DNA of 64,000 bases, from the IMG/VR virus record IMGVR_UViG_3300042885_001472; one strand, written 5' to 3'. The position numbers were made by a program, and so were the translations under genes. Each line of letters begins with the position of its first letter. Within the stretch, counting starts at the first letter, position 1. This document shows, piece by piece, positions 40,849-56,060 of the stretch. The notes below the pieces were generated by a model. That model ran no database searches. It saw only the letters and a program-made list of their open reading frames with translations, and had not been told where the DNA came from. The DNA comes from a virus. Taxonomy: Duplodnaviria > Caudoviricetes.

Positions 40849-41065
40849 TGTAGTATTGGTTATAACGGTTGGATATTGGCTTTCTAACCATTTATATAAT
40901 GCCAAAATGAGCTAATATTTTGTTAGTATTTCGTTTACTTTTACTTTTTTAGGGGTCCATTATAAAATTAAACTATCTGATTTATAGCACTTTACAAAAA
41001 TAATGTAAATATATGAGATGTATATAATATATATAATGTATATTTACACTATAAAACTAAACAAT

Positions 41066-41347
41066 ATGAGAAATTTAATATCAGTAAGCAATCAAACAGT
41101 AAGAGTAGGTAACTTTATTATTAGCAATGTTGCAGAATATGTTTTAGATAATGGAAATAACCAAATAGAATTTAAACTTGTTTCTGCTACTGACAATTTA
41201 GATATGGTTGTCTTAAAAAGTTTAGGTATTAAAAAGGTAGAGTTTAATGCAATGAATAATAACCACATTGATAAATTTATTGAAGGGTCAAAACAAGTTT
41301 ATTTCACAAATGATTTTTTTAATTCATTAATAAAATTAACAGTATAG
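41066..41347 (+). CDS. Cassette hypothetical protein
   Basis: Probable ATG 41066 within ORF 41018..41347. Confidence 0.55.
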   Translation: MRNLISVSNQTVRVGNFIISNVAEYVLDNGNNQIEFKLVSATDNLDMVVLKSLGIKKVEFNAMNNNHIDKFIEGSKQVYFTNDFFNSLIKLTV

Positions 41348-41577
41348 TAAAATGAAAAAACTTACTAAAATACTTCAAAGTTTAAATCGCTTTGCAATCG
41401 GTTTGATTTGTAACAATGTCTACCGAAACGCTAATAACAAAGATAACTGCTTAATGGACTTTTGCAAAGAAAAATAATAAATGTCTACCGTTTTTGCAAA
41501 AGCTTATACGTCTGCCAAACTGTTGCCAAAGCGTGTGTTATGTGACGTTTTTTTATTAATAAACTAAAATTAAAATT

Positions 41578-41775
41578 ATGGAAATAGGAAAATTAAAAGT
41601 AGTATTCATTCTGTCTAATGGTCAAACTTTGACAATTAAATGTAAAAAGTTTAGTATGACAAAACTTAGCGGAACAAAAGGTGAAAGGGAAATTTCGGTT
41701 GAAGGAGCTGATAGAATATGGTCTGTTGACTTAGATGAGGTAGTGGGAATAACTGCTAGATGGTGTCTACTTTAA
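41578..41775 (+). CDS. Cassette hypothetical protein
   Basis: 65 aa; unit 41537-41788 flanked by GTTATGTGAC / GACACATAAC. Confidence 0.65.
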   Translation: MEIGKLKVVFILSNGQTLTIKCKKFSMTKLSGTKGEREISVEGADRIWSVDLDEVVGITARWCLL

Positions 41776-41942
41776 AATGACACATAACGGTTGCAAATAT
41801 AAAACGTTTATTAAACTAAACTTAAATTGAAAAACAGAATATAAATATAAACACAACAATAAATTTGGAACACTGGAATAAATGTTTTATATTTGTTGTT
41901 ATAAGTATGTATTATTTTTTAAACACTAAATTAAATAGAATT

Positions 41943-42149
41943 ATGAAAGACATTAAAGAAATGGAAGTAGAAGAACTTCGCAAAGAAATGGACGAACTTT
42001 GGGGATATTTATATATGACAAGAGAAGTCGGTGCTTATGATAAATTTGAGTGGAACGGATTAGATTATTGGGATGCTGATAGAAGACATCACAAAGTATC
42101 ACAAGAAGTTCTTCTACGGAGTATATTAGAACTCACTGATAAAAAATAA
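41943..42149 (+). CDS. Cassette hypothetical protein
   Basis: ATG 41943; unit 41898-42162. Confidence 0.65.
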   Translation: MKDIKEMEVEELRKEMDELWGYLYMTREVGAYDKFEWNGLDYWDADRRHHKVSQEVLLRSILELTDKK

Positions 42150-42223
42150 TATTACCTATAACGATTTGCGTATATACGCAGTGCTAACGAAAATTTAATT
42201 TGAAATACAAAATTTAATAATAT

Positions 42224-42415
42224 ATGAAAACTTTAATTGGAAAAATGAAAGCATTGCGTATATACGCTGTTATAAGCAGTGCTTTTAAACACGATTGTTG
42301 GATGAACAAGAAAATGGTATCAGCTTCTTATTTCAAAGATGGTGATAGCAGTGTAATATTTTCAACTGGTAAAAAATATTGTTGTGAAAAATGTGGGAAT
42401 CAGTGGTCTGAATAG
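42224..42415 (+). CDS. Cassette protein with Cys motifs; start codon lies inside the hairpin loop
   Basis: HDC...CCEKC; reads through the right arm as ALRIYAVISS; unit 42269-42428. Confidence 0.6.
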   Translation: MKTLIGKMKALRIYAVISSAFKHDCWMNKKMVSASYFKDGDSSVIFSTGKKYCCEKCGNQWSE

Positions 42416-42519
42416 CATTGCTTATAACGTTTTGCAGCTAATAAATCGGCTTGCTGTTTATTAGGTGCGGTTATAGGTATGTGTTTTTTGCGTAGGAATT
42501 AACAACTAAAATTATAAAT

Positions 42520-42687
42520 ATGAAAATTAAAATTAAAACCGAAAAAGTAGAATTTGAATTTGATGATGAGAAAATTTTTCAAATGGGAAATTATTTTGAA
42601 AAGGAAAATAAAGCTGTTTTAGAATTTCTAAAGGAGTGTATTCAAAAGGTAAGTGAGGAATCGATTAAAATTAATAAACGTGAGTAG
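42520..42687 (+). CDS. Cassette hypothetical protein (55 aa, below the ORF-track cut-off)
   Basis: MKIKIKTEKVEFEFDDEKIF...KINKRE*; unit 42470-42715. Confidence 0.6.
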   Translation: MKIKIKTEKVEFEFDDEKIFQMGNYFEKENKAVLEFLKECIQKVSEESIKINKRE

Positions 42688-42772
42688 TGCGGTGGGTAAA
42701 AACATTACCTATAACGGTTTGCAGCTTTGAGCCGTTTAAACGAATATTAATTTAAAACAATAATTAACGAAT

Positions 42773-43000
42773 ATGAAAAATGAAACAATAAAAAATGGCT
42801 TAAAGGTGCTGTTAGTAGCTGTTATTTTTTGCGGTTGTGATACTACTGTAAGGAAAAATTTAACAGGTGAAAAATATTTTGGAAGTGATATAGAAGTGCT
42901 TGTAGTCGATAGTTGTGAGTATCTGATTTTTGCTTCTGGTACGAGAAGTGTAACGCATAAGGGGAACTGTAAATATTGTGCAGAACGTAGCAAAAAATAA
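42773..43000 (+). CDS. Cassette-encoded putative small lipoprotein
   Basis: MKNETIKNGLKVLLVAVIFCG-C signal/lipobox; C-terminal THKGNCKYC; paralogue of 52583..52846. Confidence 0.65.
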   Translation: MKNETIKNGLKVLLVAVIFCGCDTTVRKNLTGEKYFGSDIEVLVVDSCEYLIFASGTRSVTHKGNCKYCAERSKK

Positions 43001-43116
43001 TTGCTACTAACGGTTGAGGCTATGAGTAGTTGCCTTGTAAATACTGCTCAATTAACCACAAACGCTGATAGGCAATTGCTTATAGCCTTTGTTATAGGTT
43101 GTAAAATTTATGGATT

Positions 43117-43359
43117 ATGAAAGTAACAGATTTTATTGGAGTGAAAGCTAAATACGATGAAGATGGACAATTTATTTGGGGAATTGAAAAGGATGGTGGA
43201 CATCAAAAACTTGCTGATTTAAGAGGTTGGGGAGCAATTCAAAACTTATTCATCAATAAGGATAAAACTATTGATTTAGATGCAGCAGCAAGTTTTCAAG
43301 ATGAATTTGGCAGATGGATTGTCGAGGCTATAAACGAGAAATTGGAATGGGAACGGTAG
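43117..43359 (+). CDS. Cassette hypothetical protein
   Basis: 80 aa; unit 43091-43379. Confidence 0.7.
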   Translation: MKVTDFIGVKAKYDEDGQFIWGIEKDGGHQKLADLRGWGAIQNLFINKDKTIDLDAAASFQDEFGRWIVEAINEKLEWER

Positions 43360-43500
43360 TAAATTTTATTACCTATAACGGTTGGCGATTGGTGTCTGTT
43401 ATTTTGCCTTGCAGACATTTCAATTTTACGATAAACTTAATAGGCAAAATTATAGCACCAATTGCTTGTTAGCAGTATGTGTTTTTAAACTTTTTTAGCG

Positions 43501-43695
43501 ATGGCAGGATTAAATTATGGAAACTCTTTTACAAAAAAAAGAGGTATGTATAAAAATAAAAAGGTTGGAGTTAGTTACGCTGAGTTGGCGGATAAATGGA
43601 TTGTAAGAATATTAAAAAATGGAACAGTAACAACAATTGCACAATTTAAAACAAAGGAGGAAACGGATGAATATTACGGTGCGTTGGCAGTTTAA
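43501..43695 (+). CDS. Cassette hypothetical protein, possibly AP2-like DNA-binding
   Basis: VGVSYAELADKWIVRI...IAQFKTKEE loosely resembles AP2 domains; unit 43468-43711. Confidence 0.45.
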   Translation: MAGLNYGNSFTKKRGMYKNKKVGVSYAELADKWIVRILKNGTVTTIAQFKTKEETDEYYGALAV

Positions 43696-43762
43696 AAACA
43701 TTACTGCTAACGTTTTGCAGCTAAACTTAGTTTATTAACCGAATTTAAAACACAATGTAATT

Positions 43763-44011
43763 ATGGAATACAAATCAGAAGATTTTATATCATTTATAGA
43801 GAATAACAGACGAGATAAGGTAAGCCCTAACGGACTTGAATTAATTGCTAAACGTTTTAGGGAACTGGAATGCGAGGTTAATAAATTGAGTTTAGCTGCT
43901 GTTAGCGGTTCGTTGAGTAGTAAATGTTTTACGTTAGCGAATGAATTGGCAATAGCTGGTTATGGAAACGAAGCCGTTATGTTACACTCAATTAGTAATT
44001 CAATACAATGA
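43763..44011 (+). CDS. Cassette protein whose N-terminal half is encoded in the loop of a 195-nt hairpin
   Basis: Reads through the right arm as VNKLSLAAVSGS; unit 43901-44019. Confidence 0.6.
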   Translation: MEYKSEDFISFIENNRRDKVSPNGLELIAKRFRELECEVNKLSLAAVSGSLSSKCFTLANELAIAGYGNEAVMLHSISNSIQ

Positions 44012-44108
44012 CCGCTAACGTTATCGAGCCTTGCACAGCTAAGGTGTCGCCCGGGTTGGGTTATAGGTAGGTTGTAACGAATGTTTAATTAATACACAAT
44101 TTAAAAAT

Positions 44109-44369
44109 ATGGAAAATACAGATTTAATAGGAGAAGATTTTTATCAAATAGAAAAACAAAAAGGTAATATTTTAGATGTAAATAGTGCTATGGCTTTTAA
44201 AATAGCTTGGGATTATGCAATTGGTTATCATAAAAATAAGGTTAAAATAATAGAATTAGAGCTATTAAAATACAAAGAATTAGAAAAAAAAGTTCGTGAA
44301 ATTTCTGATAATATTAATACTAAGCAAAGTATATCTTATTGCGTTATGGAACATTTTAAAATTATATAA
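44109..44369 (+). CDS. Cassette hypothetical protein
   Basis: 86 aa; unit 44060-44408. Confidence 0.6.
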   Translation: MENTDLIGEDFYQIEKQKGNILDVNSAMAFKIAWDYAIGYHKNKVKIIELELLKYKELEKKVREISDNINTKQSISYCVMEHFKII

Positions 44370-44520
44370 TCAAAAATGTTTCTAAATGATACACAACTTA
44401 CCTATAACGTTTTCGAGCTAAGCCCTCGTTTTAATGGGGCTTAGGTTGTGTTACCTGCTGGCGGCAGAGAAATGTTGCTATAAGACTTTAATATAAAAAA
44501 TAACTTAAAATAAATATAAA

Positions 44521-44991
44521 ATGGAAAGAAGCGATTTTAGAATCATAGAAAGACTGAACTCATTTGGTAAATCTGAATTTATTATCCAACATAAAAAACA
44601 TAAAATGGTTGGAGGTTTCTTCGGACTATTTGGTGGTACTATGCAAGATGTATGGGAAGACTTCTACCTAGAAGTATATGAATGCTATGTAAACGACCAA
44701 CACAGATTTCATAAATATCTATTTATACAAAATTGGAAAGAAAATACAGAAGAAGAAATTGAGTTCTATATAGAACACTTCAATAGAAAACCAATTGAGT
44801 ATAGAGGATATAAATTAATTCCGATTGTTTCATACTTTGGTCAAAAATGCCTAACCTATTATGACCCTAAATCATTTTGTAGAAGAGGTAATTACAACTA
44901 TGGTTATAGAATATATAGTAGTGAATATGAATCCAAGAAGTATATAGATGATAAATTAGATAAAGGCAGAATATTAAATATTTATGAATAA
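44521..44991 (+). CDS. Cassette hypothetical protein (last cassette of array 1)
   Basis: 156 aa; unit 44450-45084. Confidence 0.7.
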   Translation: MERSDFRIIERLNSFGKSEFIIQHKKHKMVGGFFGLFGGTMQDVWEDFYLEVYECYVNDQHRFHKYLFIQNWKENTEEEIEFYIEHFNRKPIEYRGYKLIPIVSYFGQKCLTYYDPKSFCRRGNYNYGYRIYSSEYESKKYIDDKLDKGRILNIYE

Positions 44992-45081
44992 TATGAAGAT
45001 TCCAATAGGTGAAAATGAAATAGTTTAGATTTTTTTAACGGCACATACAAAACTATTTCAAAGTAGCTACCGCTTGCAGGT

Positions 45082-45170
45082 AACTATTATATATAAACAA
45101 GTATAGTCTAAACCCTTTAATAACAATACTTTGAACCAAAAAATTATAAAGATTTGTAAATAAAAGTTTA
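45082..45170. repeat. attI-like array-terminal site, copy 1
   Basis: AAC-TATTATATATAAACAAGTATAGTCTAAACCCTTTAA...GATTTGT..AAAAGTTTA; 83/89 identical to 54821-54909 by manual alignment; no hairpin. Confidence 0.75.
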
Positions 45171-45251
45171 ATTATCTTTTAAAGATGAAAATCACTAAAT
45201 AAAATTAGGAAAATATAAATTAATATGTTATCTTTGTAAAAAATATATGTT

Positions 45252-45710
45252 ATGGAAAGTTTAGATGTTAAAAATTTTTGTTTAGTTATATTAGGTAAAC
45301 AAAATGACGTTAAAAAAGAGTTAGAATTTATTTCTGAAGGACCAATAAATTATGTTGAGGGAAAATATTTATTCATCGCAACTTTTAAATCAACATTGTT
45401 CGCGAAGGATATTGAAATCTTTTTAAGTAGTTCCAATATAAATTATATCTTATCTGAAATGGTTTCTTCATTATTTTCGGCTGATCTTGGTGAGTTTAAT
45501 TCAGCACTATTTAATTTAAATCAAAATACTAATATTTTTGAGAAAAAAATTGTTGTAGATTATACTGGAACTGAAGAAGCTGTAATTATTGATGAAGAAG
45601 ATGAAAATTTAACTTTAGATGAATTATTGGATTTAGTGTCTGAAATAGGATTGGATAAATTAACAAGTAAACAAAAAGAACTTTTAAATAAATTTTCACT
45701 AAATAAATAA
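45252..45710 (+). CDS. Hypothetical protein
   Basis: 152 aa; TATCTTTG promoter element at 45229-45236. Confidence 0.7.
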   Translation: MESLDVKNFCLVILGKQNDVKKELEFISEGPINYVEGKYLFIATFKSTLFAKDIEIFLSSSNINYILSEMVSSLFSADLGEFNSALFNLNQNTNIFEKKIVVDYTGTEEAVIIDEEDENLTLDELLDLVSEIGLDKLTSKQKELLNKFSLNK

Positions 45711-45711
45711 T

Positions 45712-46521
45712 ATGGTAAATAAAAAATTCATTAATGGTCAAGAAGATTCAATTTCAAATTACCTTAAGGATGTAAAAAAGTGTGGTGTTATTAACACTGA
45801 CACTGAAGTTGAATTAGCTAAAAGAATACAAGAAGGTGATCAAGTTGCCGCTGATGAATTGGCTAAAGCTAATCTTAGATTTGTTATATCAATCGCCAAA
45901 GAATATCAAAATCAGGGATTACCATTAGCGGATTTAATTTCAGAAGGTAATTACGGATTGATTATAGCGGCTCAACGATTTGACTATACAAAAGGGTTTA
46001 AATTTATTTCTTACGCTGTATGGTGGATAAAACAATCTATTATGCAGTCACTAAACGAACATTCCAGAACTGTTCGGTTACCAACTAATGTTATCAATAA
46101 ACTTTCTAAAATTAAGAAAGAGATAGATGCGTTTGAGCAAAAGTTTGAAAGAAAACCAGTATTAGGTGATGAAATTGAAATGGTATTCCACCCAACAGTG
46201 ATATCGTTAAGTACAACAATAAATGATGATGGTGATGAGTTAATTGAAGTTATTGAAGATCCTAACATTAATAGTCCGGACAATGATCCATATAATGAGT
46301 ACGACATTAAAGAACGTATGAATAAAATTCTATCAATTCTTTCTGAAAGGGAGAAAAATGTGATTGAGTTATATTATGGTATAAATGGATCACCTTTAAC
46401 ATTGGAAGAAATTGGTGAGGAATATGATTTAACTAAAGAAAGAATTCGTCAAATTAAAGAAAAATGTATCAGAAAACTTAGAAATAATGCTGATGTCTTA
46501 CAACAACAATTATTTGGATAA
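45712..46521 (+). CDS. rpoD: RNA polymerase sigma70-family factor, Bacteroidota primary-sigma-like
   Basis: ANLRFVISIAKEYQNQG, DLISEGNYGL, GFKFISYAVWWIKQSI, RTVRLP, region 4 LTLEEIGEEYDLTKERIRQIKEK; no region 1.1. Confidence 0.92.
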   Translation: MVNKKFINGQEDSISNYLKDVKKCGVINTDTEVELAKRIQEGDQVAADELAKANLRFVISIAKEYQNQGLPLADLISEGNYGLIIAAQRFDYTKGFKFISYAVWWIKQSIMQSLNEHSRTVRLPTNVINKLSKIKKEIDAFEQKFERKPVLGDEIEMVFHPTVISLSTTINDDGDELIEVIEDPNINSPDNDPYNEYDIKERMNKILSILSEREKNVIELYYGINGSPLTLEEIGEEYDLTKERIRQIKEKCIRKLRNNADVLQQQLFG

Positions 46522-46666
46522 ATATGAATAAATTTAATGAGTGGTGGAACGAAGTTTTATTCGTTATTAATATTAGTATCTTTGAAATATCTGTTGATAA
46601 TGGAATGATTTGTTCATTGATATTGATAATTTTTGGATTAATGAGTTTATAAATAAAACAAATAAT

Positions 46667-46846
46667 ATGAAAAAAGACATTGAAATTAGTGTAACTGAAA
46701 CAAAATCAGTTGAACATGTTAGTTATGAAGAGTTGTATAACTCATTAAGAGATAGAATTAGATTAATTCAACAACTTAATGATAAATACGAAAATGATGA
46801 AGATTTTGGTAGAAATTTAAGAAAATTATTGAATTTAGGTGGGTAA
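46667..46846 (+). CDS. Hypothetical protein
   Basis: Probable ATG 46667; ends GGTGGGTAA just before the first hairpin of array 2. Confidence 0.55.
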   Translation: MKKDIEISVTETKSVEHVSYEELYNSLRDRIRLIQQLNDKYENDEDFGRNLRKLLNLGG

Positions 46847-46933
46847 AAATATTGATACTAACGGTATCGGACTTGGCGATGTTGCCGAAAACAAATGTTA
46901 ATTAGAATTACTAAACTTTAAATTATAGATAAA

Positions 46934-47230
46934 ATGTCAAACGAAGAAATGAACGGCAATATTGTCAAACCCGTGTTACCTGTTGTACTTATTTGCGATT
47001 GCAGTAGCCGTGAACACCAAATTATCATTGAACACAACAATGAAGATAACTTAACCTACTGCCATATTCATTTGGTAAAACACGGCTTTTGGCGAAGATT
47101 GAAAGTTGGTTTAAAATACATATTTGGTTATAAATGTAGATACGGTCAATGGGATGAATTTATATTAAAACCCGAACACGCTAACCAGCTTCGTGAATTG
47201 TCGAATTTTCTTTCACAGCATAGCAGGTAA
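46934..47230 (+). CDS. Cassette hypothetical protein starting in a hairpin loop
   Basis: MSNEEMNGNIVKPVLPVV...CDC...EH; stop TAA is part of the AAC core; unit 46975-47231. Confidence 0.65.
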   Translation: MSNEEMNGNIVKPVLPVVLICDCSSREHQIIIEHNNEDNLTYCHIHLVKHGFWRRLKVGLKYIFGYKCRYGQWDEFILKPEHANQLRELSNFLSQHSR

Positions 47231-47351
47231 CGGTTGAGTAGTAAAAAATTCTAAAACTAAAAATTATGTATACAAAAGATTTATATGGATTTAATCCAGT
47301 TACAATTGGCCAACACAGGTTGGTTATATTTATTTATTTATAACTAATAAC

Positions 47352-47651
47352 ATGAAAACTAAACAAGAAATAGAAAAGTTAGCTGAGCAATATTTACAAA
47401 AAAATAAACATAATTTTGATACTTGGAAAGAGATAGAACATGTTAAAATTAGTTATATAGATGCTTACACTCAATGCCAAGAAGATGTAGATTGGGAATT
47501 ATTAGTGAAGTTGATTAAAAGGTATACAGAAGAAGATTTACTTCACGCTTTTAGAGAAGGAGTTTTATTACCTAACTCACAAATTGGTATAATGGAAGAT
47601 ATATTTAAACAAGTAGTTCAATCACTAAACAAACAAGACAATGAAAACTAA
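47352..47651 (+). CDS. MKTK(E/Q)EIE..LAE family protein, copy 1
   Basis: Shared blocks MKTKxEIExLAE, YTQCQED, YTEED, SLNKxD. Confidence 0.7.
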   Translation: MKTKQEIEKLAEQYLQKNKHNFDTWKEIEHVKISYIDAYTQCQEDVDWELLVKLIKRYTEEDLLHAFREGVLLPNSQIGIMEDIFKQVVQSLNKQDNEN

Positions 47652-47907
47652 AGAAGAAATAGAACAGTTAGCTGAAGAATTTGGGGATAAATATGCTGAT
47701 AACGGAAATCATAAATATGGTTTTATCAAAGGCTACACTCAATGCCAAGAAGATATGGCTGATAAGAAATCCACAGAGGAAGATATTAGAAAGGCTATTG
47801 AAGTTGGTGTAAATGCAGAAGCCGGTGATTATCCAAAAGGTTTTACACACAAACTTGGAATTAGCTTAGAAGATTATTTTATTAACTCACTAAACAAAAA
47901 AGACTAA
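47641..47907 (+). CDS. MKTK(E/Q)EIE..LAE family protein, copy 2
   Basis: Same conserved blocks. Confidence 0.7.
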   Translation: MKTKEEIEQLAEEFGDKYADNGNHKYGFIKGYTQCQEDMADKKSTEEDIRKAIEVGVNAEAGDYPKGFTHKLGISLEDYFINSLNKKD

Positions 47908-47908
47908 T

Positions 47909-48196
47909 ATGAAAAGCAAAGAAGAAATAGAACAGTTAGCTGAAAATCAATATCCAATTGAAGTAGGAGGTTCGATGTGGATGCCTAATACTAATGATAT
48001 TAAAAAGGCTAATGAACAAGAAGGTTACATAAAAGGTTACATTCAATGCCAACAAGATATGGCTGATAAGAAATATACAAAGGCACAAATTATATGGGTA
48101 ATACAAGAAGCATACGGACACGGTAGAGATAGTGAAGACACTATTGAAGAAAGTATTGATTATATTTTTAACTCACTAAACAAACAAGACTTATGA
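47909..48196 (+). CDS. MKTK(E/Q)EIE..LAE family protein, copy 3
   Basis: Same conserved blocks. Confidence 0.7.
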   Translation: MKSKEEIEQLAENQYPIEVGGSMWMPNTNDIKKANEQEGYIKGYIQCQQDMADKKYTKAQIIWVIQEAYGHGRDSEDTIEESIDYIFNSLNKQDL

Positions 48197-48298
48197 TACA
48201 AAAGATTTATCTAAATGTAATTAGTTTTATATTTTTATTAATTGCAAAATTGATTATTAAATGTTTAGATTTTATCAACTCATTAAACAAACAAAACA

Positions 48299-49183
48299 AT
48301 GACCAGTAAAGAAGTAATGGATGCAGCATTTAATTTAGCTAATAATAAACAAAAGACAATGAAAAACATACACATATTGCCAACGGATAAACCAAGTATA
48401 TTACATTTATATACTGATGAAAATGGCACAAGACTTGAAACTTTTGAAGTAGAATATTCACACACAAGAGATACTCAACACATCTACATCACTTCTGATG
48501 AAGAAATTAAAGATGGAGATTGGTATTTAGACACCTTTAATAATCAAAGAATTAAAGCTAATGAATTTTCAGACCATAAACATTACGGAAATGCTTGTAA
48601 AAAAATCATCCTAACAACAGACCAAGACTTAATTACAGATGGTGTTCAAGCTATTGATGATAAGTTTTTAGAATGGTTTGTAAATAACAGTAGTTGTGAA
48701 AGTGTTGAGGTTGTAAAAGACGGTTTAAAAGTTAAAGAGGGAGGTATTCAAGAACTAATGGAAGATGAGTATTATCAAAAATTCCCAGAAGAGCTTCCAA
48801 ACTGCGTTTTTATTGATAAATATGAAATCATCATTCCACAAGAAGAACCTAAACAAGAAACACTTGAAGAAGTTCAATTAGCTATTTTATTTCATAATAC
48901 TTATGAGAATTTAGCACCAAATTTTGGTTATGAAACAAGAGCAGATACAAAATCATTTGAAACTACTACTCCAAATGGAATGTTAATGATTGCTGTTTGT
49001 AAAGAAATAATTAAATGGCAACAAGAAAGAAGTTATAGTGAGGAAGAAGTAAAAGAAATAATTAAACTTTCTTGTGAAAAAGGTATGCTGATTCAAAGAA
49101 CTATAAATGATAAAGTTAAAATTCCATATACAAGAATAAAAGACTTTACGATTAAAATGTTGGAACAATTTAAAAAGAAATAG
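48299..49183 (+). CDS. Hypothetical phage protein
   Basis: 294 aa; KNIHILPTDKPS, HIYITSDEEIKDGDW, CKKIILTTDQDL; C-terminal YSEEEV resembles the YTEED block of its neighbours. Confidence 0.7.
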   Translation: MTSKEVMDAAFNLANNKQKTMKNIHILPTDKPSILHLYTDENGTRLETFEVEYSHTRDTQHIYITSDEEIKDGDWYLDTFNNQRIKANEFSDHKHYGNACKKIILTTDQDLITDGVQAIDDKFLEWFVNNSSCESVEVVKDGLKVKEGGIQELMEDEYYQKFPEELPNCVFIDKYEIIIPQEEPKQETLEEVQLAILFHNTYENLAPNFGYETRADTKSFETTTPNGMLMIAVCKEIIKWQQERSYSEEEVKEIIKLSCEKGMLIQRTINDKVKIPYTRIKDFTIKMLEQFKKK

Positions 49184-49184
49184 T

Positions 49185-49511
49185 ATGAAAACTAAAGAAG
49201 AAATAGAACAGTTAGCTGAAAGCCAATATGGAACTGAAATAGGCAGTATAAGAGGGAGTAATCCTTATGACTTAGAAGGAAATAGAAAAAATGGCTTAAA
49301 GGTGCTGTTAGTGGATGATAAAATTAAGTATGATGATTTAAAAGACGGAGATATTTATGAGCAGGAACAAAGCAAAGGCGAATGGGTAAAAGGAAAAATT
49401 TGCCACCATTGGAGAGGTAGTTTAATGATAGAATTAATTGAAGGAAGATTGAATGGGAAGCAATGGTATTTGTTTCCTGATTTAAAGAGATTAAGGCGTG
49501 TGGCAGCTTAA
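49185..49511 (+). CDS. Chimeric ORF: MKTKEE-family N-terminus fused through an att right arm to a cassette gene
   Basis: First 36 nt identical to 47641; contains AAAAATGGCTTAAAGGTGCTGTTAGT, identical to 42792-42816; unit 49307-49528. Confidence 0.65.
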   Translation: MKTKEEIEQLAESQYGTEIGSIRGSNPYDLEGNRKNGLKVLLVDDKIKYDDLKDGDIYEQEQSKGEWVKGKICHHWRGSLMIELIEGRLNGKQWYLFPDLKRLRRVAA

Positions 49512-49774
49512 TTTTATTTGCCACTAACGGTTGAGTGTATGAGAAGGTTTGCTTTGTTAAACTTTCAAATTACCACCGACCTTTGTAGCTAACTTTCTTA
49601 TACACCTTGTTATAACCAGTACGGATAAATTAGCACTGAACTTGATACGAAGAACGAATAAAAACTTTTTAAAAATGTGCGGTGGAAAACTTGATTAATT
49701 TAAAAATAAGTAGTATATCTGTAATATCATAATAATAATAAACTAATAAACTAATAAACTAAAAAATTAAACAA

Positions 49775-50368
49775 ATGGCAAAATTTATTGAAACAATTTA
49801 TCCAACTATTGAAGATAGAGTAAGTAGATGGGAAACAATGGGAATGTTACATATAGTTAAATCTGATGATTCTAAAAAATTGGTGGCGATGGCACTTGAT
49901 GCAACTGCAATATATCTTACAGAATTTAATTTTAAAAATTTTGATAACGATACAAAAACGGTTTTAATACCAGTAATTGTAAGAATTTTCAACGAAACAA
50001 ACAAAGATTTCACATTAGAAACATTAACTAAATCAGTTAGAAGAATAATTGAAGATTTTGTGGAAAAATATGAAGAAGCAAAACCTAAGTTTAACCCATT
50101 AACTTCCGAAAGAGATGATGATGCTGAATTTATTGCGTTATATTGCGAAAACTATTCTTTTGATGAAAACAAAATTAAAATTAAATTTAAAATTACATTT
50201 TGGAAAGATATTCCAGAAAGAACATTTATAATTGATGATACCAACTTCTTTCCAAAATATTTTATGGGGTTGGATGGTATTTTATATGAAAATTATGGAA
50301 CAGAGGAAAAACCAATGTGGGAAAATGTTTTTGATAGTGACTATGAGATTGAAATTGTTAATCTTTAA
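49775..50368 (+). CDS. Cassette protein resembling the N-terminal region of T4-like major capsid proteins
   Basis: RWETMGMLH...MALDATAIYL...IPVIVRIF parallels gp23-type KW..GLL.GL...A.LLEN.A..L...P.VRR.F (recalled pattern, not searched). Confidence 0.4.
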   Translation: MAKFIETIYPTIEDRVSRWETMGMLHIVKSDDSKKLVAMALDATAIYLTEFNFKNFDNDTKTVLIPVIVRIFNETNKDFTLETLTKSVRRIIEDFVEKYEEAKPKFNPLTSERDDDAEFIALYCENYSFDENKIKIKFKITFWKDIPERTFIIDDTNFFPKYFMGLDGILYENYGTEEKPMWENVFDSDYEIEIVNL

Positions 50369-50570
50369 GGTGGGAAATTTTTAAAAAGTTTTTCTCACAG
50401 AACTTAAATATGGAACACGAATGTAGTATTGGTTATAACGGTTGGGTGTATGAGAAGGTTTGCTTAGATGAACTTTCAAATTATACACAACTGTTATAAC
50501 CAGTACGGTTAATTTAAGATAAAACTTGATTAAATGAATAATAATTAGTATATTTGTAAAAAAATAAATT

Positions 50571-51044
50571 ATGGAAAACATATTAAAAAGGCTTGAATAT
50601 AAAATATTTAAGAAATACGAAAAAAAGATTGAAGATGTAAAAGATTATGTATGGGATTATAAAAAAATCAATAATGACATTACTCAACTTGAACACAATG
50701 AAACATTGAGTCGTTTTGTGTTATATTATATGAAAGAATTTAACTTAGATGTAATAATTACATCTGGAGAAATTTGCACTATATTTCAAAACTTTAGTAA
50801 TTTTTATATTATTGGTGAAAACGATGTATATAATTATAAAAGATATAAATCTGACATTAGTAATGATTTTGAACCATTTTACCTTATCAAAGAAGAAGAT
50901 AATAATATTGGGGTTGTAATTAAAACCAATATTAGAATTGAACCGAATAATATTATACTAACAAACACTGAAGGTTCTAATTATAAAATAATTGATGTTT
51001 GGAATTTACCAAGTGTTAAACTAACTGAATGTTTTAAAAAATAA
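50571..51044 (+). CDS. Cassette hypothetical protein
   Basis: 157 aa; TATATTTG promoter at 50549; two-gene unit 50493-51405. Confidence 0.7.
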   Translation: MENILKRLEYKIFKKYEKKIEDVKDYVWDYKKINNDITQLEHNETLSRFVLYYMKEFNLDVIITSGEICTIFQNFSNFYIIGENDVYNYKRYKSDISNDFEPFYLIKEEDNNIGVVIKTNIRIEPNNIILTNTEGSNYKIIDVWNLPSVKLTECFKK

Positions 51045-51048
51045 AGAT

Positions 51049-51387
51049 ATGGAAAAAGAAAATTTAAAAACTGGGGTGTACCTCATAAAAGCGGATAGTA
51101 AAGATTATTCCTTAACAAAAGAGAAAGAAGAGAAAATAAATTCATTAGAAATTAATGAAGAACATAAAGATTTTTTCAAAAATCTTTTTAGAGAAGAACC
51201 AACACCAAAAGGTTATGATTTATTAGTTGAATTGGTTGGTCAAAATCCTTTTTTAAAAATCAAAAGTGTTAAAAATAATGATACTGGTGAAAATATTACT
51301 GAACAATTTACTGATAAAAATATTGATGATGTTAATTCTTTATGGTTATTTACTAAACATTTAGAATGGGTTCTTCAGAACATATAA
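51049..51387 (+). CDS. Cassette hypothetical protein
   Basis: 112 aa; second gene of unit 50493-51405. Confidence 0.7.
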   Translation: MEKENLKTGVYLIKADSKDYSLTKEKEEKINSLEINEEHKDFFKNLFREEPTPKGYDLLVELVGQNPFLKIKSVKNNDTGENITEQFTDKNIDDVNSLWLFTKHLEWVLQNI

Positions 51388-51532
51388 CGTAGTATTGGTT
51401 ATAACGTTTTGCAGCTTTAAGAAGTGGCTGCCTAACGGAAAGTTCAAAGTTCGCACAATGTTTATGGCAGCTTTTGCCAAACCGCTGTTATGTGCTGGGC
51501 GGATTATCAGTACTAATTTTAATTTAAAAACG

Positions 51533-51745
51533 ATGTACAAAGCATTTCAAAACAAAAAGTATTATTTGGCGTTTAACCGATTTCCTAAAACTGCCAAAAA
51601 AGTAGGGGGTGTGCATAAAGCATATTCAACAGGATTTAGAAAATGGAATTCTGATGATATGATTACCTACGCAATAGTTGTCGGCACATTCAGGATTATG
51701 TTTGGAATTAAAACGCCAAATTATACTTGTGATGAAGGATGTTAG
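51533..51745 (+). CDS. Cassette hypothetical protein
   Basis: ATG 51533 (the longer track ORF runs through the hairpin); unit 51487-51758. Confidence 0.6.
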   Translation: MYKAFQNKKYYLAFNRFPKTAKKVGGVHKAYSTGFRKWNSDDMITYAIVVGTFRIMFGIKTPNYTCDEGC

Positions 51746-51815
51746 CCTTGCACATAACGCTTTGCAGCTTTGAGCCGTTTACCAAATATTAATAACAAAA
51801 AAATAAATAACGAAT

Positions 51816-51995
51816 ATGCCAAAAACAATACATGCAAAAAGAGAAGATTTAATTTGCGGAAAAATAGACTTAGCACAAGATATGGCTATTAAATTAAAAA
51901 GTATCGAATTACTTGAATTATTAGATAGTATCAGATATGATGCTGTAAGAATGGAACAAAAACTTATTAGCAGAAAACAGGAATCAAAAATATAA
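51816..51995 (+). CDS. Cassette hypothetical protein (59 aa) starting at a hairpin-loop ATG
   Basis: MPKTIHAKREDLICGKIDL...QESKI*; same AACGAATATG context as 42773 and 53389. Confidence 0.55.
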   Translation: MPKTIHAKREDLICGKIDLAQDMAIKLKSIELLELLDSIRYDAVRMEQKLISRKQESKI

Positions 51996-52176
51996 ATAAC
52001 AGAACCACCGCTTGCAGGTAACGGTTTGCAGATTGCCGAAGGTGGCGAAATCGAAGCACTAAACTTGATATAAAAACGAATGTTAAACCGAAGCACAACA
52101 GTTGATATTAGCACTAAACCGCCACTTTTGGCAATGTGCTGTTATAAGCCGTTTTTCTTCACAAATCAAAAAATAA

Positions 52177-52516
52177 ATGGATTTACGAATTGAATACATT
52201 TTCAGAGAAGAAATGAAAAGAGATACATCTTTTCAAGAAAAAAAAAACTGGGTTAAGTTTGCTTTTCGGAACAAACAAATACTCTAAACAAGAAATGAGA
52301 GAAACTTGGGATAGAGGTATTAAACTTGGAATAGAAATAGGATTGCGAAAAGCAAGTTTAGAAGGACAAAGGATTGAACTTAATCACAATACACCCGAAG
52401 GAAAGCATAAGGAATTTCTTGAAAAGTTTTATCAATTGGCTGATGAATATAAATGTGCTGTCCAATTTCATCTCGAATTTGGAATGGTAGTAGTTGCTCG
52501 TCAAAATGGCTTATAA
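52177..52516 (+). pseudogene. Cassette gene frameshifted at an A10 tract (or slippage-controlled)
   Basis: ATG 52177 joins ORF 52259..52516 in frame if A10 at 52238-52247 were A9; unit 52141-52517. Confidence 0.55.
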
Positions 52517-52582
52517 CGGTTTGCAGATAAGCGAAGGCAAAGATTTAGAAACGAAAATTTTAACTTAAAAACAAATATAATT

Positions 52583-52846
52583 ATGAAAACGAGAACATCA
52601 TTAAACCACAGAACCTTTGCTTTTGCTTATGTGCTGTTAGTAGCTGTTATTTTTTGCGGCTGTGAGGATATGAATAGAGCCGAAGAACGCTCAAAAGTAT
52701 TTAAAACAGCAGTAGAAGTTAATGGCTACCAAATATCAATAATAGAATTTGATAGTTGTCAATACTTAATATCAGGCGTTGGCTACTCACAAATGATGAC
52801 ACATAAAGGGAACTGTAAATTTTGTACAGAACGTAGCAAAAAATAA
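52583..52846 (+). CDS. Cassette-encoded putative small lipoprotein
   Basis: ...FAYVLLVAVIFCG-C; C-terminal THKGNCKFC; unit 52636-52857. Confidence 0.65.
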   Translation: MKTRTSLNHRTFAFAYVLLVAVIFCGCEDMNRAEERSKVFKTAVEVNGYQISIIEFDSCQYLISGVGYSQMMTHKGNCKFCTERSKK

Positions 52847-52976
52847 TTGCTACTAACGTTTTGCAGCTAATAGACGGGCTGGAAACTTATATAATTCCGC
52901 CTGTTTATTAGGTGCTGTTATAGGTAGTGCCAAATATAAATACTAAAAGAATATTAATAATTAAAAAATAGAAATA

Positions 52977-53318
52977 ATGAACTTAAAAGAATTTGTAAAA
53001 TTTACATTTGAAAAATACGAAAAAAACGGGTATTGTTTTAGACCTAGAATAGTTTGTAATGATGGGTTTTCAATGAGTGTACAAGGTAGTAACGCATTAT
53101 ATTGTAGACCGAGAATTACACAAGATTGGTATGATAAAATGGAAATAGGTTATCCATCAGCAGAAGAAATTGATATAATAGAATTTGCTGAGGATATTAC
53201 AAAACCAACTGATACCGTTTATGGTTATGTGCCATGTGAACTTATTGAAAAAGTTATTTTAAAACACGGTGGTATTAACTCGGTTGAAACATTTAAAGCT
53301 TCTAAGGATATTAAATAG
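52977..53318 (+). CDS. Cassette conserved phage hypothetical protein
   Basis: CNDGFSMSVQGS..YC.PR...EIGYPS...PTDTVYGYVP...KHGG; unit 52917-53332. Confidence 0.7.
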   Translation: MNLKEFVKFTFEKYEKNGYCFRPRIVCNDGFSMSVQGSNALYCRPRITQDWYDKMEIGYPSAEEIDIIEFAEDITKPTDTVYGYVPCELIEKVILKHGGINSVETFKASKDIK

Positions 53319-53388
53319 GCATTACCTATAACGGTTTGCAGCTTTGAGCCGTTTAAACGAATATTAATTTAAAACTAAAACAACGAAT

Positions 53389-53484
53389 ATGAATAACAAT
53401 GAAATAGAAAATGGCGCAAAGGTGATGTTGGTACCAGTAGCCAAATTAAAATTTAAAAACAATAACTTAAAAATACAATTATGA
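53389..53484 (+). CDS. Hairpin-encoded leader peptide (31 aa) whose TGA overlaps the next ATG
   Basis: MNNNEIENGAKVMLVPVAKLKFKNNNLKIQL*; ATGA overlap at 53481-53484. Confidence 0.45.
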   Translation: MNNNEIENGAKVMLVPVAKLKFKNNNLKIQL

Positions 53485-53741
53485 AAAACAACAAAGAAAA
53501 ATCGTACCAATACGCATCGATGATACAAGAGGCAATAGCTGAATTGATTTCAGAACACGAATTATTAGCTGATTTTGATGATGAAAATAACGCAACTGCA
53601 TTTTTACACGCATTAGCTAATGTAGTGCCATGTAATATTTATAAGAAATTAACTAATGATAATACTGATATTTTAGGTTTTAATCATATTGCTAATAGAT
53701 TAGTATATCAATTTACAAAGCAGGACGAAGCCGAAGCGTAA
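53481..53741 (+). CDS. Cassette hypothetical protein
   Basis: 86 aa; unit 53427-53765. Confidence 0.7.
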   Translation: MKNNKEKSYQYASMIQEAIAELISEHELLADFDDENNATAFLHALANVVPCNIYKKLTNDNTDILGFNHIANRLVYQFTKQDEAEA

Positions 53742-53885
53742 ACGCCAAGGGCTATTGGTACTAACGGTCGGCAATATGAAACGGTTGCCCTTGTAAGACG
53801 TTTCAAAATATGATGCAGTTTTCTGGCAACTGTTTTATATTGCTTGTTATAGCCAGTTAATTTTAATCAATAAAAACGAAAAAAG

Positions 53886-54086
53886 ATGGAAGCACCTAAA
53901 TTAAATGAAGTATGGCATGTTCAATATGGAGAAGCCATTGGTAAAGAATACAATATCCTTGTAAGAATAGATGAGGATAAAAAAGAGTTAAATCCACCGA
54001 ATTGGAGAAGAAACAAGTATAAATGTGAGCATAAAAGTAAGGAACTGATGGTAGGTGGAAATATGTTCATTGAACGGTTTTCTTAA
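53886..54086 (+). CDS. Cassette hypothetical protein
   Basis: 66 aa; unit 53846-54097. Confidence 0.65.
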   Translation: MEAPKLNEVWHVQYGEAIGKEYNILVRIDEDKKELNPPNWRRNKYKCEHKSKELMVGGNMFIERFS

Positions 54087-54297
54087 TTGGCTATAACGGT
54101 TGGGTGTATGAGAAGGTTTGCTTAGATGAACTTTCAAATTATGCACAAATGCTGATAGCAAACTTTCTTATACACCTTGTTATGTGTAGGTGTGGTTAAT
54201 TAAGGTAGAATGTTCAATTGGATAACTGAACAAAAATTTTAAAAGAAAAAGAAAGGTGGATTTTTATTATTTTAATATTTATATATAAAAGAAAACA

Positions 54298-54747
54298 ATG
54301 AAAGATTTGAAACAATTTATTAAAACAACCATACGAGAGTTTTTGAATGAGAGTTCAATTGGGAATATTGAATATAAAATAACATATTCACCACCAGAAA
54401 ATATTCATGTTGTAGCAAAGATTGATGGTGTTATAATTGGAACATTATCTATAATAGATGATAGTCATTTCTTATCAACAGAAGATGAACCAACATTTAC
54501 AATTATGTCAGTATTTGTAGATAAAGAATATAGACAAAAAGGTATTTATATAAATTTAATCAAATATTTTTTACTAAATAATAAATATGGTGTCAAATCG
54601 TTATATTCTTCAAAAGAACCAGAATTTGATACAGAAAAAAGAACATCGGTTGCTGATGGTTTTTGGAAAAATGTTTATACAAATCAAAATAAATATGGTG
54701 TAAATGTTGATAAAATAGATAATGATTATGAAATTTCTTTAAAATAA
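54298..54747 (+). CDS. GNAT-family acetyltransferase-like protein (last cassette of array 2)
   Basis: FTIMSVFVDKEYRQKGIYINLI acetyl-CoA-binding motif A; ADGFWK; leader MKDLKQFIKTTIREFLNES. Confidence 0.7.
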   Translation: MKDLKQFIKTTIREFLNESSIGNIEYKITYSPPENIHVVAKIDGVIIGTLSIIDDSHFLSTEDEPTFTIMSVFVDKEYRQKGIYINLIKYFLLNNKYGVKSLYSSKEPEFDTEKRTSVADGFWKNVYTNQNKYGVNVDKIDNDYEISLK

Positions 54748-54820
54748 GTGCGGTGGTATTTTTCTTTTAAAATTTCCAACCGAAATATTGATTAGAAGGA
54801 TGAACGGAACACTTACACAT

Positions 54821-54909
54821 AACTATTATATATAAACAAGTATGGTCTAAACCCTTTAAAATTAATACTTTGAACCAAAAAATTATAAAGATTTGTTAAG
54901 AAAAGTTTA
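54821..54909. repeat. attI-like array-terminal site, copy 2
   Basis: Near-identical to 45082-45170 and begins at the AAC core of the last cassette. Confidence 0.75.
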
Positions 54910-55020
54910 TATATTATAAAATATAACCCAATAACACATAATTAATTCATTAATAACCTCCACTTTAACAATAAATTGATTATTTTTTTATTATAATAAT
55001 ATTTATATTAAAAAAAAGAT

Positions 55021-55326
55021 ATGGTTAAAGTAGTAAATTTTTTAAAAGTATGGGGGATATTAATTATTTCCGTACTATTATTCTTTAAAACTTGTTCAAT
55101 AACAAGTAAAGTGGAGAAGTTATCAAAAGAAACTAAAGAAGAACTTGTTAAGTTAGATAGTACGGTTAAAAGTGAGACTATTTCTGAAGAAGAATTCAAA
55201 AAAATGATCACTATTGAAGGTTTGAAATCAGAAAAAAGAATGATTCAATCAACAGATAGAAAAATTTTAGATGTTAATAGACAATCTGAAATTGATAAAG
55301 AAATTGAAAACTTAGAGAATAAATAA
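55021..55326 (+). CDS. Membrane-anchored coiled-coil hypothetical protein
   Basis: N-terminal WGILIISVLLFF then charged helices. Confidence 0.65.
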   Translation: MVKVVNFLKVWGILIISVLLFFKTCSITSKVEKLSKETKEELVKLDSTVKSETISEEEFKKMITIEGLKSEKRMIQSTDRKILDVNRQSEIDKEIENLENK

Positions 55327-56060
55327 TGGTGGGGGATGTGATTATATATACATTAGAATGTCCTTTAAGTAATAAAATTAAATATATAGGTAAAACTATG
55401 AATTTAAAGCTTAGATTATATGGTCATATTAACAAATCTAAAAATAAAAAAACATATAAAGATAAATGGGTTAATTCTTTAATAATTAAGGGTCATAAAC
55501 CAATTATGAATGTTTTAGATATTGTAAATGAAAATGAATGGGAATTTTGGGAAAAATTTTATATTTCTTTATTTAAGAGTTGGGGGTTTTCTTTGACTAA
55601 CCATACGGAAGGTGGTGATGGAGGATCTTTTAAAAAACATTCCATTGAAACCATAAAAAAAATGTCAAATAAAATACCGTGGAATAAAGGGATTCCATTT
55701 TCTGAAGATGTTAAGAAAAAAATGAGTGAGTCAGGAAAAGTAAAAGTTTTTACAAAAACTCATTTAGAAAATATGTCTAAATCACTTAAAGGTAAAAAAA
55801 GAGGTAGTTTTAGTGAAGAATGGAAACGTAATATCAGTAAAGGTAAGTTAAACACGATAATGTCTGAAGAAACTAAAGAAAAATTAAGAAATACGTCACC
55901 AAAAAGAAAGAAAATTATTTGTACAAGTACAAATATTATTTATAACAGCATATCTGAAGCTAGTAGACTTTTAAAAATACCAGTTAGTACAATTAATGGT
56001 GTGTTAAAAAAAAGAAGAAAGTTAGCTCATGGATTATTATTTAATTACTACAATGATTAA
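55326..56060 (+). CDS. GIY-YIG homing endonuclease with NUMOD3/NUMOD1-like repeats
   Basis: IIYTLECP....KYIGKT, LTNHTEGGDG, KHSIETIKKMS-type repeats, YNSISEASRLL. Confidence 0.88.
   Translation: MVGDVIIYTLECPLSNKIKYIGKTMNLKLRLYGHINKSKNKKTYKDKWVNSLIIKGHKPIMNVLDIVNENEWEFWEKFYISLFKSWGFSLTNHTEGGDGGSFKKHSIETIKKMSNKIPWNKGIPFSEDVKKKMSESGKVKVFTKTHLENMSKSLKGKKRGSFSEEWKRNISKGKLNTIMSEETKEKLRNTSPKRKKIICTSTNIIYNSISEASRLLKIPVSTINGVLKKRRKLAHGLLFNYYND

Follow-up and report, generated by a model that had tools for sequence, protein, structure and literature searches.

Hairpin bodies as separable modules in integron-like gene arrays of a T4-like phage

The viral DNA considered here (Caudoviricetes; IMG/VR record IMGVR_UViG_3300042885_001472), a stretch of 64,000 nucleotides referred to below as the window, carries two arrays of small plus-strand open reading frames (ORFs) at 40.8-54.9 kb, with the ORF 45252-45710 and a sigma factor gene between them, and an imperfect hairpin lies behind nearly every array ORF. 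An initial annotation of this DNA had proposed that hairpin bodies and gene units assort independently, by exchanges at both the AAC and the GTT ends of the hairpins or by homologous recombination among bodies through the phage UvsX protein. Comparison with related viral contigs reveals a modularity in three parts, exchange at both cores, a 2-4-fold preference of bodies for the downstream gene, and a docking-type site after the last TAAC of each array.

The phage is AT-rich and T4-like. Genes in the window code for a sigma-70 factor, baseplate proteins, gp32, RNase H, a gp41-like helicase and a UvsX/RecA-like protein, and its ribonucleotide reductase is interrupted by inteins. The closest isolates are Flavobacterium 'immuto' phages, with a UvsX identity of only 40%, and a megablast search of 10.6 kb of the window against isolated phages gave no match. 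In addition, no arrays were found near the sigma-70 gene in 57 viral relatives collected through that gene (at most 63% identity), and its metagenome relatives, at up to 89% identity, lie solely on contigs of 1.4-3 kb.

The hairpins share a common order: a variable 8-nt box (R''), TAAC, 4-5 unpaired nucleotides of the form G(G)TT(T), a stem of 17-24 bp, a loop of 10-150 nt, the returning stem, 1 nt, GTTA and a second variable 8-nt box (R'). They are thus imperfect inverted repeats with AAC/GTT cores, constant in structure and variable in sequence, as is characteristic of attC-type sites. However, their R consensus and bulge are unlike those of classical attC, as a bulge of 4-5 nt (GGTT or GTTTT) stands directly after TAAC and the usual spacer and extrahelical bases are missing. 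A stringent scan found 12 such elements in the window, none in five shuffles of it and none on the minus strand; the curated total is about 23 (40863-54182), including left-arm-only, orphan right-arm and degenerate copies, and all hairpins in the window are co-oriented with the genes. A permissive finder matched shuffled as well as real sequence, and a geometry-constrained finder was used instead; this finder still mis-calls some right cores, and its count of arm-family mismatches, being unreliable, serves here for single examples only.

The unpaired bases after TAAC are nearly always G(G)TT(T), for example at 42712-42720 and 42425-42432. The left core thus reads AAC-G-GTT or AACGTT, a near-palindrome that resembles an R''/R' junction without a body. 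Furthermore, 29-nt 'empty' gene units occur in five loci (L131, L186, L347, L354 and L362) in the form GTTAT-xxxx-TCGTTTTAATG-x'x'x'x'-ATAAC, that is, as R'/R'' mini-hairpins without a gene, and the TCGTTTTAATG loop also closes minimal bodies of 40 nt, including that at 44405-44453 in the window.

All the repeats quoted in the initial annotation are present in the window; its coordinates give the position of AAC, and the motifs themselves begin 8-9 nt later. The motif GCAGCTTTGAGCCGTTT (body A) stands at 42721, 51764 and 53338, GTGTATGAGAAGGTTTGC (body B) at 49535, 50446 and 54104, and GCAGCTAATA at 42434 and 52863. The first and last copies of body A are identical over 57 nt (42703-42759 and 53320-53376), 46 nt of them after AAC, the identity beginning 10 nt before TAAC. 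The orphan right arm of body A proved real, 49286-49314 matching 42790-42818, and its R' box GTTAGTGG is complementary to the R'' box at 49517-49528. The two lipoprotein gene units, reported to have the same flanks behind unrelated bodies, do so, and the bodies that follow them are unrelated too. Each is flanked by a 22-nt inverted repeat, and the two share only their ends (42806-42845 with 52631-52670 and 42953-43013 with 52799-52859), the identity running from about 5 nt before GTT to TAACG. The hairpin at 51402-51490 does combine arms of different families, its left arm belonging to a family found in L139_4 and its right arm resembling the GCCAAACC family.

These repeats within the window are nevertheless indecisive, because chromosomal integrons too carry homogeneous attC families. 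The occurrence of one body before different genes, which the initial annotation had put forward, is real but a weak argument: it is expected classically, because the attC in that position belongs to the upstream gene. The decisive evidence for modular exchange is the cross-contig comparison only.

For this comparison, array loci were recovered from viral contigs with short hairpin patterns (left-arm 14-mers, an 18-mer of body B and a 17-mer of body A) and oriented, and their hairpins were called. The body B 18-mer occurs exactly in 111 viral-contig stretches and the body A 17-mer in 6; the contigs with the exact body B 18-mer (behind L286-L391, IMG/VR) reach 464 kb. Chance as the origin of the hairpins is therefore excluded, given these 111 stretches and the 12 elements of the stringent scan against none in the shuffles. 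The resulting data set comprises 283 related viral-contig loci and the window, with 1,155 hairpins that fall into 699 body clusters and have only the cores in common. In about 35% of the bodies, an ATG opens a frame that continues across the GTT core for 25 codons or more, and these read-through bodies supply the start of the next protein (in the window at 42159, 42712, 43708, 46859, 51402 and 52514). The R' box GTTAGTAGCTGT codes for a hydrophobic 'LLVAV' stretch in several unrelated proteins.

In bodies common to different contigs, near-identity sets in right behind TAAC and lasts until right before GTTA, and both boxes differ. In 6,909 same-body pairs, similarity mostly ends 4-6 nt outside TAAC or GTT; a shared flank of at least 30 nt was found on neither side in 6,497 of them, on the right only in 296, on the left only in 24 and on both sides in 92. 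Body B, with 105 members, is joined to 38 left-box types and 19 right-box types in 74 combinations. Near-identical bodies thus sit between unrelated flanks, and the bodies are separable modules, as the initial annotation had supposed.

The junctions between these modules are exact. The gene unit at 43091-43379 recurs in L181, and the match is bounded by the G of GTT on the left (with 1 nt more at most) and by the C of TAAC on the right; the two copies have unrelated bodies in front of them, and nothing downstream is related either. The GNAT acetyltransferase unit (54179 onward) stands behind body B in the window and behind a 40-nt minimal body in L333 (W_20 against L333_0). Between L310_0 and L338_0, the flanks are homologous on both sides (89% and 76%) and the bodies are unrelated, swapped exactly from TAAC to GTTA; swaps of this kind between conserved neighbours number 1-2 among about five pairs that are not near-identical, which is too few for a rate. 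Among gene-homologous pairs with different bodies, similarity breaks off 0-3 nt after the C in 75% of the upstream cases and 0-3 nt before the G in 45% of the downstream cases. These exact junctions at either core in cross-contig pairs bear out the proposed exchange at both the AAC and the GTT ends. However, the homologous recombination through UvsX that had been offered as another route cannot have made the key junctions, because one side of each is unrelated. It may explain rare chimeric bodies, as crossovers inside bodies do occur (51402 in the window; L095_0), leaving mismatched stems; these are a side process.

A further regularity concerns the boxes. The box after GTTA and the box before the next TAAC, which face each other across a gene, show complementarity at 4.98 of the 8 positions, with 6-7 as the usual value (n = 848), as against 2.66 for the two boxes of one hairpin and 2.51 for random pairs, and the across-gene value was the higher in 661 comparisons and the lower in 114. 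In the window, the chain from R' to the next R'' holds for almost all units, the last unit of each array included. The gene units thus have complementary ends of the integron type, beginning with an R' remnant and ending with R''. This is the expected remnant of a circular intermediate closed through a hairpin, as in integron cassettes, and the mark of a site-specific exchange at the cores; gene-unique boxes that are complementary across the gene are not to be expected from homologous recombination. The box test is silent on which neighbouring body belongs to the gene. In the degenerate hairpin at 41487-41540, the R' box GTTATGTGAC still matches the R'' box at 41777-41788.

The stem-loops of T4-type phages offer an obvious comparison. 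In these phages, PeSL cassettes consist of a promoter and a stem-loop with a conserved sequence, and homologous recombination is the process by which they are exchanged (Arbiol et al. 2010, PMC2839356; Comeau et al. 2014, PMC4122927). Like them, the present arrays are hyperplastic regions of a T4-like phage in which small novel ORFs are flanked by repeated stem-loops that mediate modular shuffling. One might therefore regard the hairpins as RNA-level or regulatory stem-loops (terminators, processing sites or stabilisers, similar to PeSLs) that are shuffled only by homologous recombination between repeats; the tolerance of the sense strand for G:U-type pairs and the co-orientation of all hairpins with the genes would suit such a role, as would the setting itself, which is that of the PeSLs. 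This is nonetheless a very improbable account. Only the 4-base cores are common to all copies, so that no single sequence-conserved motif runs through the 699 body clusters of the 1,155 hairpins; unrelated sequences meet at exact junctions; the complementary boxes are particular to each gene; a search of Rfam gave no match; and a tyrosine recombinase stands beside the arrays in relatives. Homologous recombination of the PeSL type was accordingly rejected as the main process.

Linkage of bodies with their neighbours was examined starting from genes, not from bodies. At the nucleotide level, the body was kept (identity of at least 0.8) in 4% of pairs when only the upstream flank was homologous and in 46-53%, at any alignment length, when only the downstream flank was. 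At the level of gene families, with vertical copies collapsed, the body had changed in 57 of the 70 contexts that share the upstream gene and differ in the downstream one, and in 46 of the 132 contexts of the converse kind (Fisher p = 2e-10); with the over-sampled body B cluster left out, the counts are 52 of 62 and 42 of 73 (p = 0.001). The proportion of contexts with a changed body thus ranges over 81-84% for a shared upstream gene and 35-58% for a shared downstream gene. At the protein level, which reaches older homology, bodies were kept in 6% (upstream) and 20% (downstream) against a baseline of 2.7%. Finally, among 26 informative pairs of full-length homologous gene units, the upstream body alone is kept in 18, the downstream body alone in 3 and neither in 5, representing about 12, 2 and 5 independent loci.

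Overall, an upstream gene keeps the body that follows it in 4-19% of informative comparisons and a downstream gene keeps the body that precedes it in 42-65%; a body stays with its downstream gene about 2-4 times more often than with its upstream gene. Independent assortment as first proposed was therefore an overstatement: bodies are separable from genes and their linkage is not strict, but it is not absent either. Strict linkage of a body to one gene family was not seen when bodies and flanks were clustered over the related arrays. The classical cassette, a gene with its downstream attC that crosses over only at G|TT of R', is not what is found here, and the remark that classical integron logic does not fit these arrays is borne out, as the body goes mainly with the downstream gene and junctions lie at both cores.

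This polarity might suggest that only the AAC-side crossover is enzymatic, with a cassette made of a body and its downstream gene, and that differing upstream bodies arise by other routes, such as the repeated formation of new cassettes on a small set of body templates, gene conversion, or recombination among bodies by homology or microhomology (UvsX). The clearly stronger linkage to the downstream gene is what this explanation predicts, and the dominance of few body families (body B in its 111 stretches) and the chimeric bodies with crossovers in shared apical stems (again 51402 and L095_0) agree with it. However, the unit at 43091-43379 is 97% identical to its L181 partner, both R boxes included, in front of which stand unrelated bodies; there is no homology for a homologous crossover on the GTT side, and independent capture would not repeat the boundaries. 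The swap between L310_0 and L338_0 is, in addition, exact at both cores. We therefore regard an exchange confined to the AAC side as unlikely.

A second possibility is that the gene unit is itself the mobile element, its own inverted repeat (GTTA-box ... box-TAAC) pairing across the gene and the unit being excised or inserted at both cores in one reaction, with the bodies as a resident scaffold, loosely like the repeats between spacers; the downstream bias would then stem from selection, because bodies supply leaders and start codons. The high across-gene complementarity, the gene units shared without either body, the 'empty' units with their TCGTTTTAATG loop and the 35% of bodies with an ATG reading through the core can all be read in this way. 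However, the polarity persists in bodies without a read-through ORF (0.59 against 0.14), 18 of the 26 informative full-length pairs keep the upstream body, and both arrays end in TAAC plus a non-hairpin site, which suggests insertion at a single core. This explanation is, in our view, quite unlikely. Selection on bodies that bear start codons was likewise rejected as the sole cause of the polarity, since the bias persists in non-coding bodies.

The stems hold information on the strand. With symmetric scoring, wobble pairs of the G:T and T:G kind number 2,073 against 514 for A:C and C:A (1,891 against 185 with the original scoring). With DNA parameters, the plus strand folds more stably in 791 of 915 hairpins (86%), at a mean of -14.3 against -12.1 kcal/mol for the minus strand, although stability is no proof of which strand is recombined. 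The sense strand is thus the favoured one in these folding models, and the antisense strand can still fold.

In classical integrons, the cassette consists of a gene and its downstream attC, the crossover takes place at G|TT, the bottom (antisense) strand is recombined, and attI stands next to intI, where the array has its promoter-proximal (5') end. The integrase IntI cleaves AA|C in the 5' arm of the folded single strand, and an IntI-specific segment reads the extrahelical bases of attC. A tyrosine recombinase gene is present in three of five large related contigs, and in all three the hairpins lie 1-1.5 kb upstream of it, on the same strand and pointing to it. The recombinase of L398 best matches XerA-type models (NF040815) and PDB 4a8e; against TIGR02249 it reaches 154.8 bits, below the cut-off of 265, in a match split into two stretches. 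An IntI-type integrase with the IntI-specific extra segment was not found beside an array, nor was an attI at a 5' end beside intI; instead, in both arrays of the window, the TAAC of the last gene unit, at the 3' end, is joined to one shared non-hairpin sequence, at 45085 and 54824.

Some neighbouring features deserve mention. An adenine DNA methyltransferase-like gene (L398:356-1150, on a 170-kb contig) starts inside the last detected hairpin (282-398) and stands between that hairpin and the Xer-like recombinase gene. The contig G005 (362 kb, rated complete, with terminal repeats) has a body B match and no PF00589 match. A gene resembling GIY-YIG/NUMOD homing endonucleases lies at 55326-56060 in the window, about 400 nt past the shared array-end site. 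Five tandem ORFs (47352, 47641, 47909, 48299 and 49185), which extend over 47352-49511 and have repeated 5' ends, occupy the hairpin-free part of array 2; four of them start with near-identical MK(T/S)K(Q/E)EIE(K/Q)LAE codons, and the last (49185-49511) is fused in frame with the orphan right arm of body A. The features of the window are collected in Table 1.

Table 1. Arrays, hairpin bodies and gene units in the window.
Feature	Position	Strand	Remarks
Array 1	40863..45175	+	Left cores TAAC at 40863, 41785, 42159, 42425, 42712, 43008, 43376, 43708, 44016, 44405
Array 1 end, non-hairpin site	45073-45175	+	Repeat D9
Array 2, left cores	46859..54914	+	46859, 47228, 49525, 50436, 51402, 51755 (left arm only), 52019
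Array 2, further left cores		+	52514, 52854, 53329, 53762, 54094
Array 2 end	54812-54914	+	Same non-hairpin site as array 1
Degenerate hairpin	41487-41540	+	Left core TACC, not TAAC
Body A, copy 1	42712..42814	+	ATG in loop; right arm codes start of lipoprotein 1
Body A, copy 2	51755..51815	+	Left arm and part of loop; without right arm
Body A, copy 3	53329..53430	+	Right arm diverged; downstream unit different from that of copy 1
Body A, orphan right arm	49286..49314	+	Within ORF 49185-49511
Body B, copy 1	49525..49612	+	
Body B, short copy	50436..50496	+	Most of right arm missing
Body B, copy 3	54094..54182	+	Precedes GNAT acetyltransferase unit
GCAGCTAATA body, short form	42425..42473	+	
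GCAGCTAATA body, longer form	52854..52920	+	
Lipoprotein gene unit 1	42811..43011	+	Ends GTTAGTAGC and GCTACTAAC, a 22-nt inverted repeat
Lipoprotein gene unit 2	52636..52857	+	Ends as unit 1; different bodies on both sides
Chimeric hairpin	51402..51490	+	Arms from two body families
Gene unit shared with L181	43091..43379	+	97% identical to L181:1600-1888; flanking sequence unrelated on both sides

Taken together, these observations suggest, as the reading we hold to be moderately probable, an integron-like cassette system of a T4-like phage with site-specific exchange at two cores, in which the AAC side is favoured and an Xer-like recombinase acts on hairpins of either strand. In such a system, modules of three kinds would join at two fixed 4-base cores in the order gene unit, TAAC, hairpin body, GTTA and next gene unit, each gene unit carrying its own pair of complementary boxes of 8-12 nt just outside the cores. 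The Xer-like tyrosine recombinase, by analogy with IntI, would cut a folded single strand at AA|C of its 5' arm; the better-folding sense strand would give AAC-side events and the antisense strand GTT-side events, and a recombinase without the IntI-specific segment may be relaxed in its choice of strand. The AAC-side crossover would be the commoner, with about two thirds to four fifths of events, and would move a body together with its downstream gene. Because the AAC-side cassette would be a body plus downstream gene, its polarity would be the reverse of that in bacterial integrons, which fits the non-hairpin docking site that stands directly behind a TAAC where each array ends on the right. 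The GTT-side crossover would be rarer, with about one fifth to one third of events or more, and would part a gene unit from its upstream body; both types together would let bodies and gene units reassort.

Several points weigh against this reading. No tyrosine recombinase was found among the scanned ORFs of the 64-kb window, and no close relative of its arrays was found, so that no exchange event could be dated or given a direction. The loci were ascertained through patterns derived from the bodies themselves, the calling of hairpins is not free of error, there are few informative events that are independent of one another (for full-length units, about 19), and the polarity is weaker once the body B cluster is left out. 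That the folded strand determines the side of the crossover is suggested by analogy with IntI only, and the tolerance for G:T pairs would also suit selection on the mRNA, that is, an added role at the RNA level. The evidence is computational throughout.

The phage arrays exhibit considerable similarities to bacterial integrons, but there are also significant differences. Both have arrays of small co-oriented genes with imperfect hairpins and AAC...GTT cores between them, conserved in structure and variable in sequence, and complementary cassette ends; few hairpin families accompany many genes, as in chromosomal integrons; and a tyrosine recombinase of the Xer/IntI superfamily stands at the array end, in the case of the phage in relatives of the one studied here. 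Unlike in bacterial integrons, the body of the phage hairpin goes mainly with the downstream gene, crossovers lie at both cores, the sense strand folds better than the antisense strand, the array has its docking site at the 3' end, the recombinase of the relatives falls below IntI cut-offs with XerA as its best match, and the carrier is a T4-like phage of the virulent type.

Clusters of attC sites without an integrase (CALINs) are known in virulent phages, including a Polaribacter phage; these clusters, some with no more than two sites, conform to the classical attC model, and IntI1 recombines them with a preference for the bottom strand (Qi et al. 2023, PMC9892861). The present arrays resemble them as clustered, phage-borne attC-like sites with no integrase nearby, and the host phylum, Bacteroidota, is probably common to the Polaribacter phage and the phage of the window. 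They differ in having 10-13 sites per array, a non-canonical geometry, a reversed polarity and two-sided exchange. In a limited literature search, neither two-sided exchange nor hairpin bodies that form modules of their own were found described.

It is a premise of integron biology that each attC is the property of one gene, with a single point of exchange. The birth of cassettes and the shared attC families of chromosomal arrays are long-standing questions in this field, and in hundreds of phage contigs, hairpins and genes are seen to be paired anew at two precise points, with a polarity that can be measured. More tentatively, an Xer-type recombinase without the strand-choice segment could act on either strand, so that gene units and hairpin 'connectors', which often would carry ribosome sites, start codons, and N-terminal or signal peptides, would be independently mobile, a natural combinatorial re-pairing of leaders and genes across many large aquatic phages. 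These arrays offer a testable model, that of relaxed strand choice by an insertion-less recombinase, and a system for studying the origin of attC, strand selectivity and the shuffling of leaders and genes. The finding also bears on how accessory genes are acquired and rearranged in large lytic phages.

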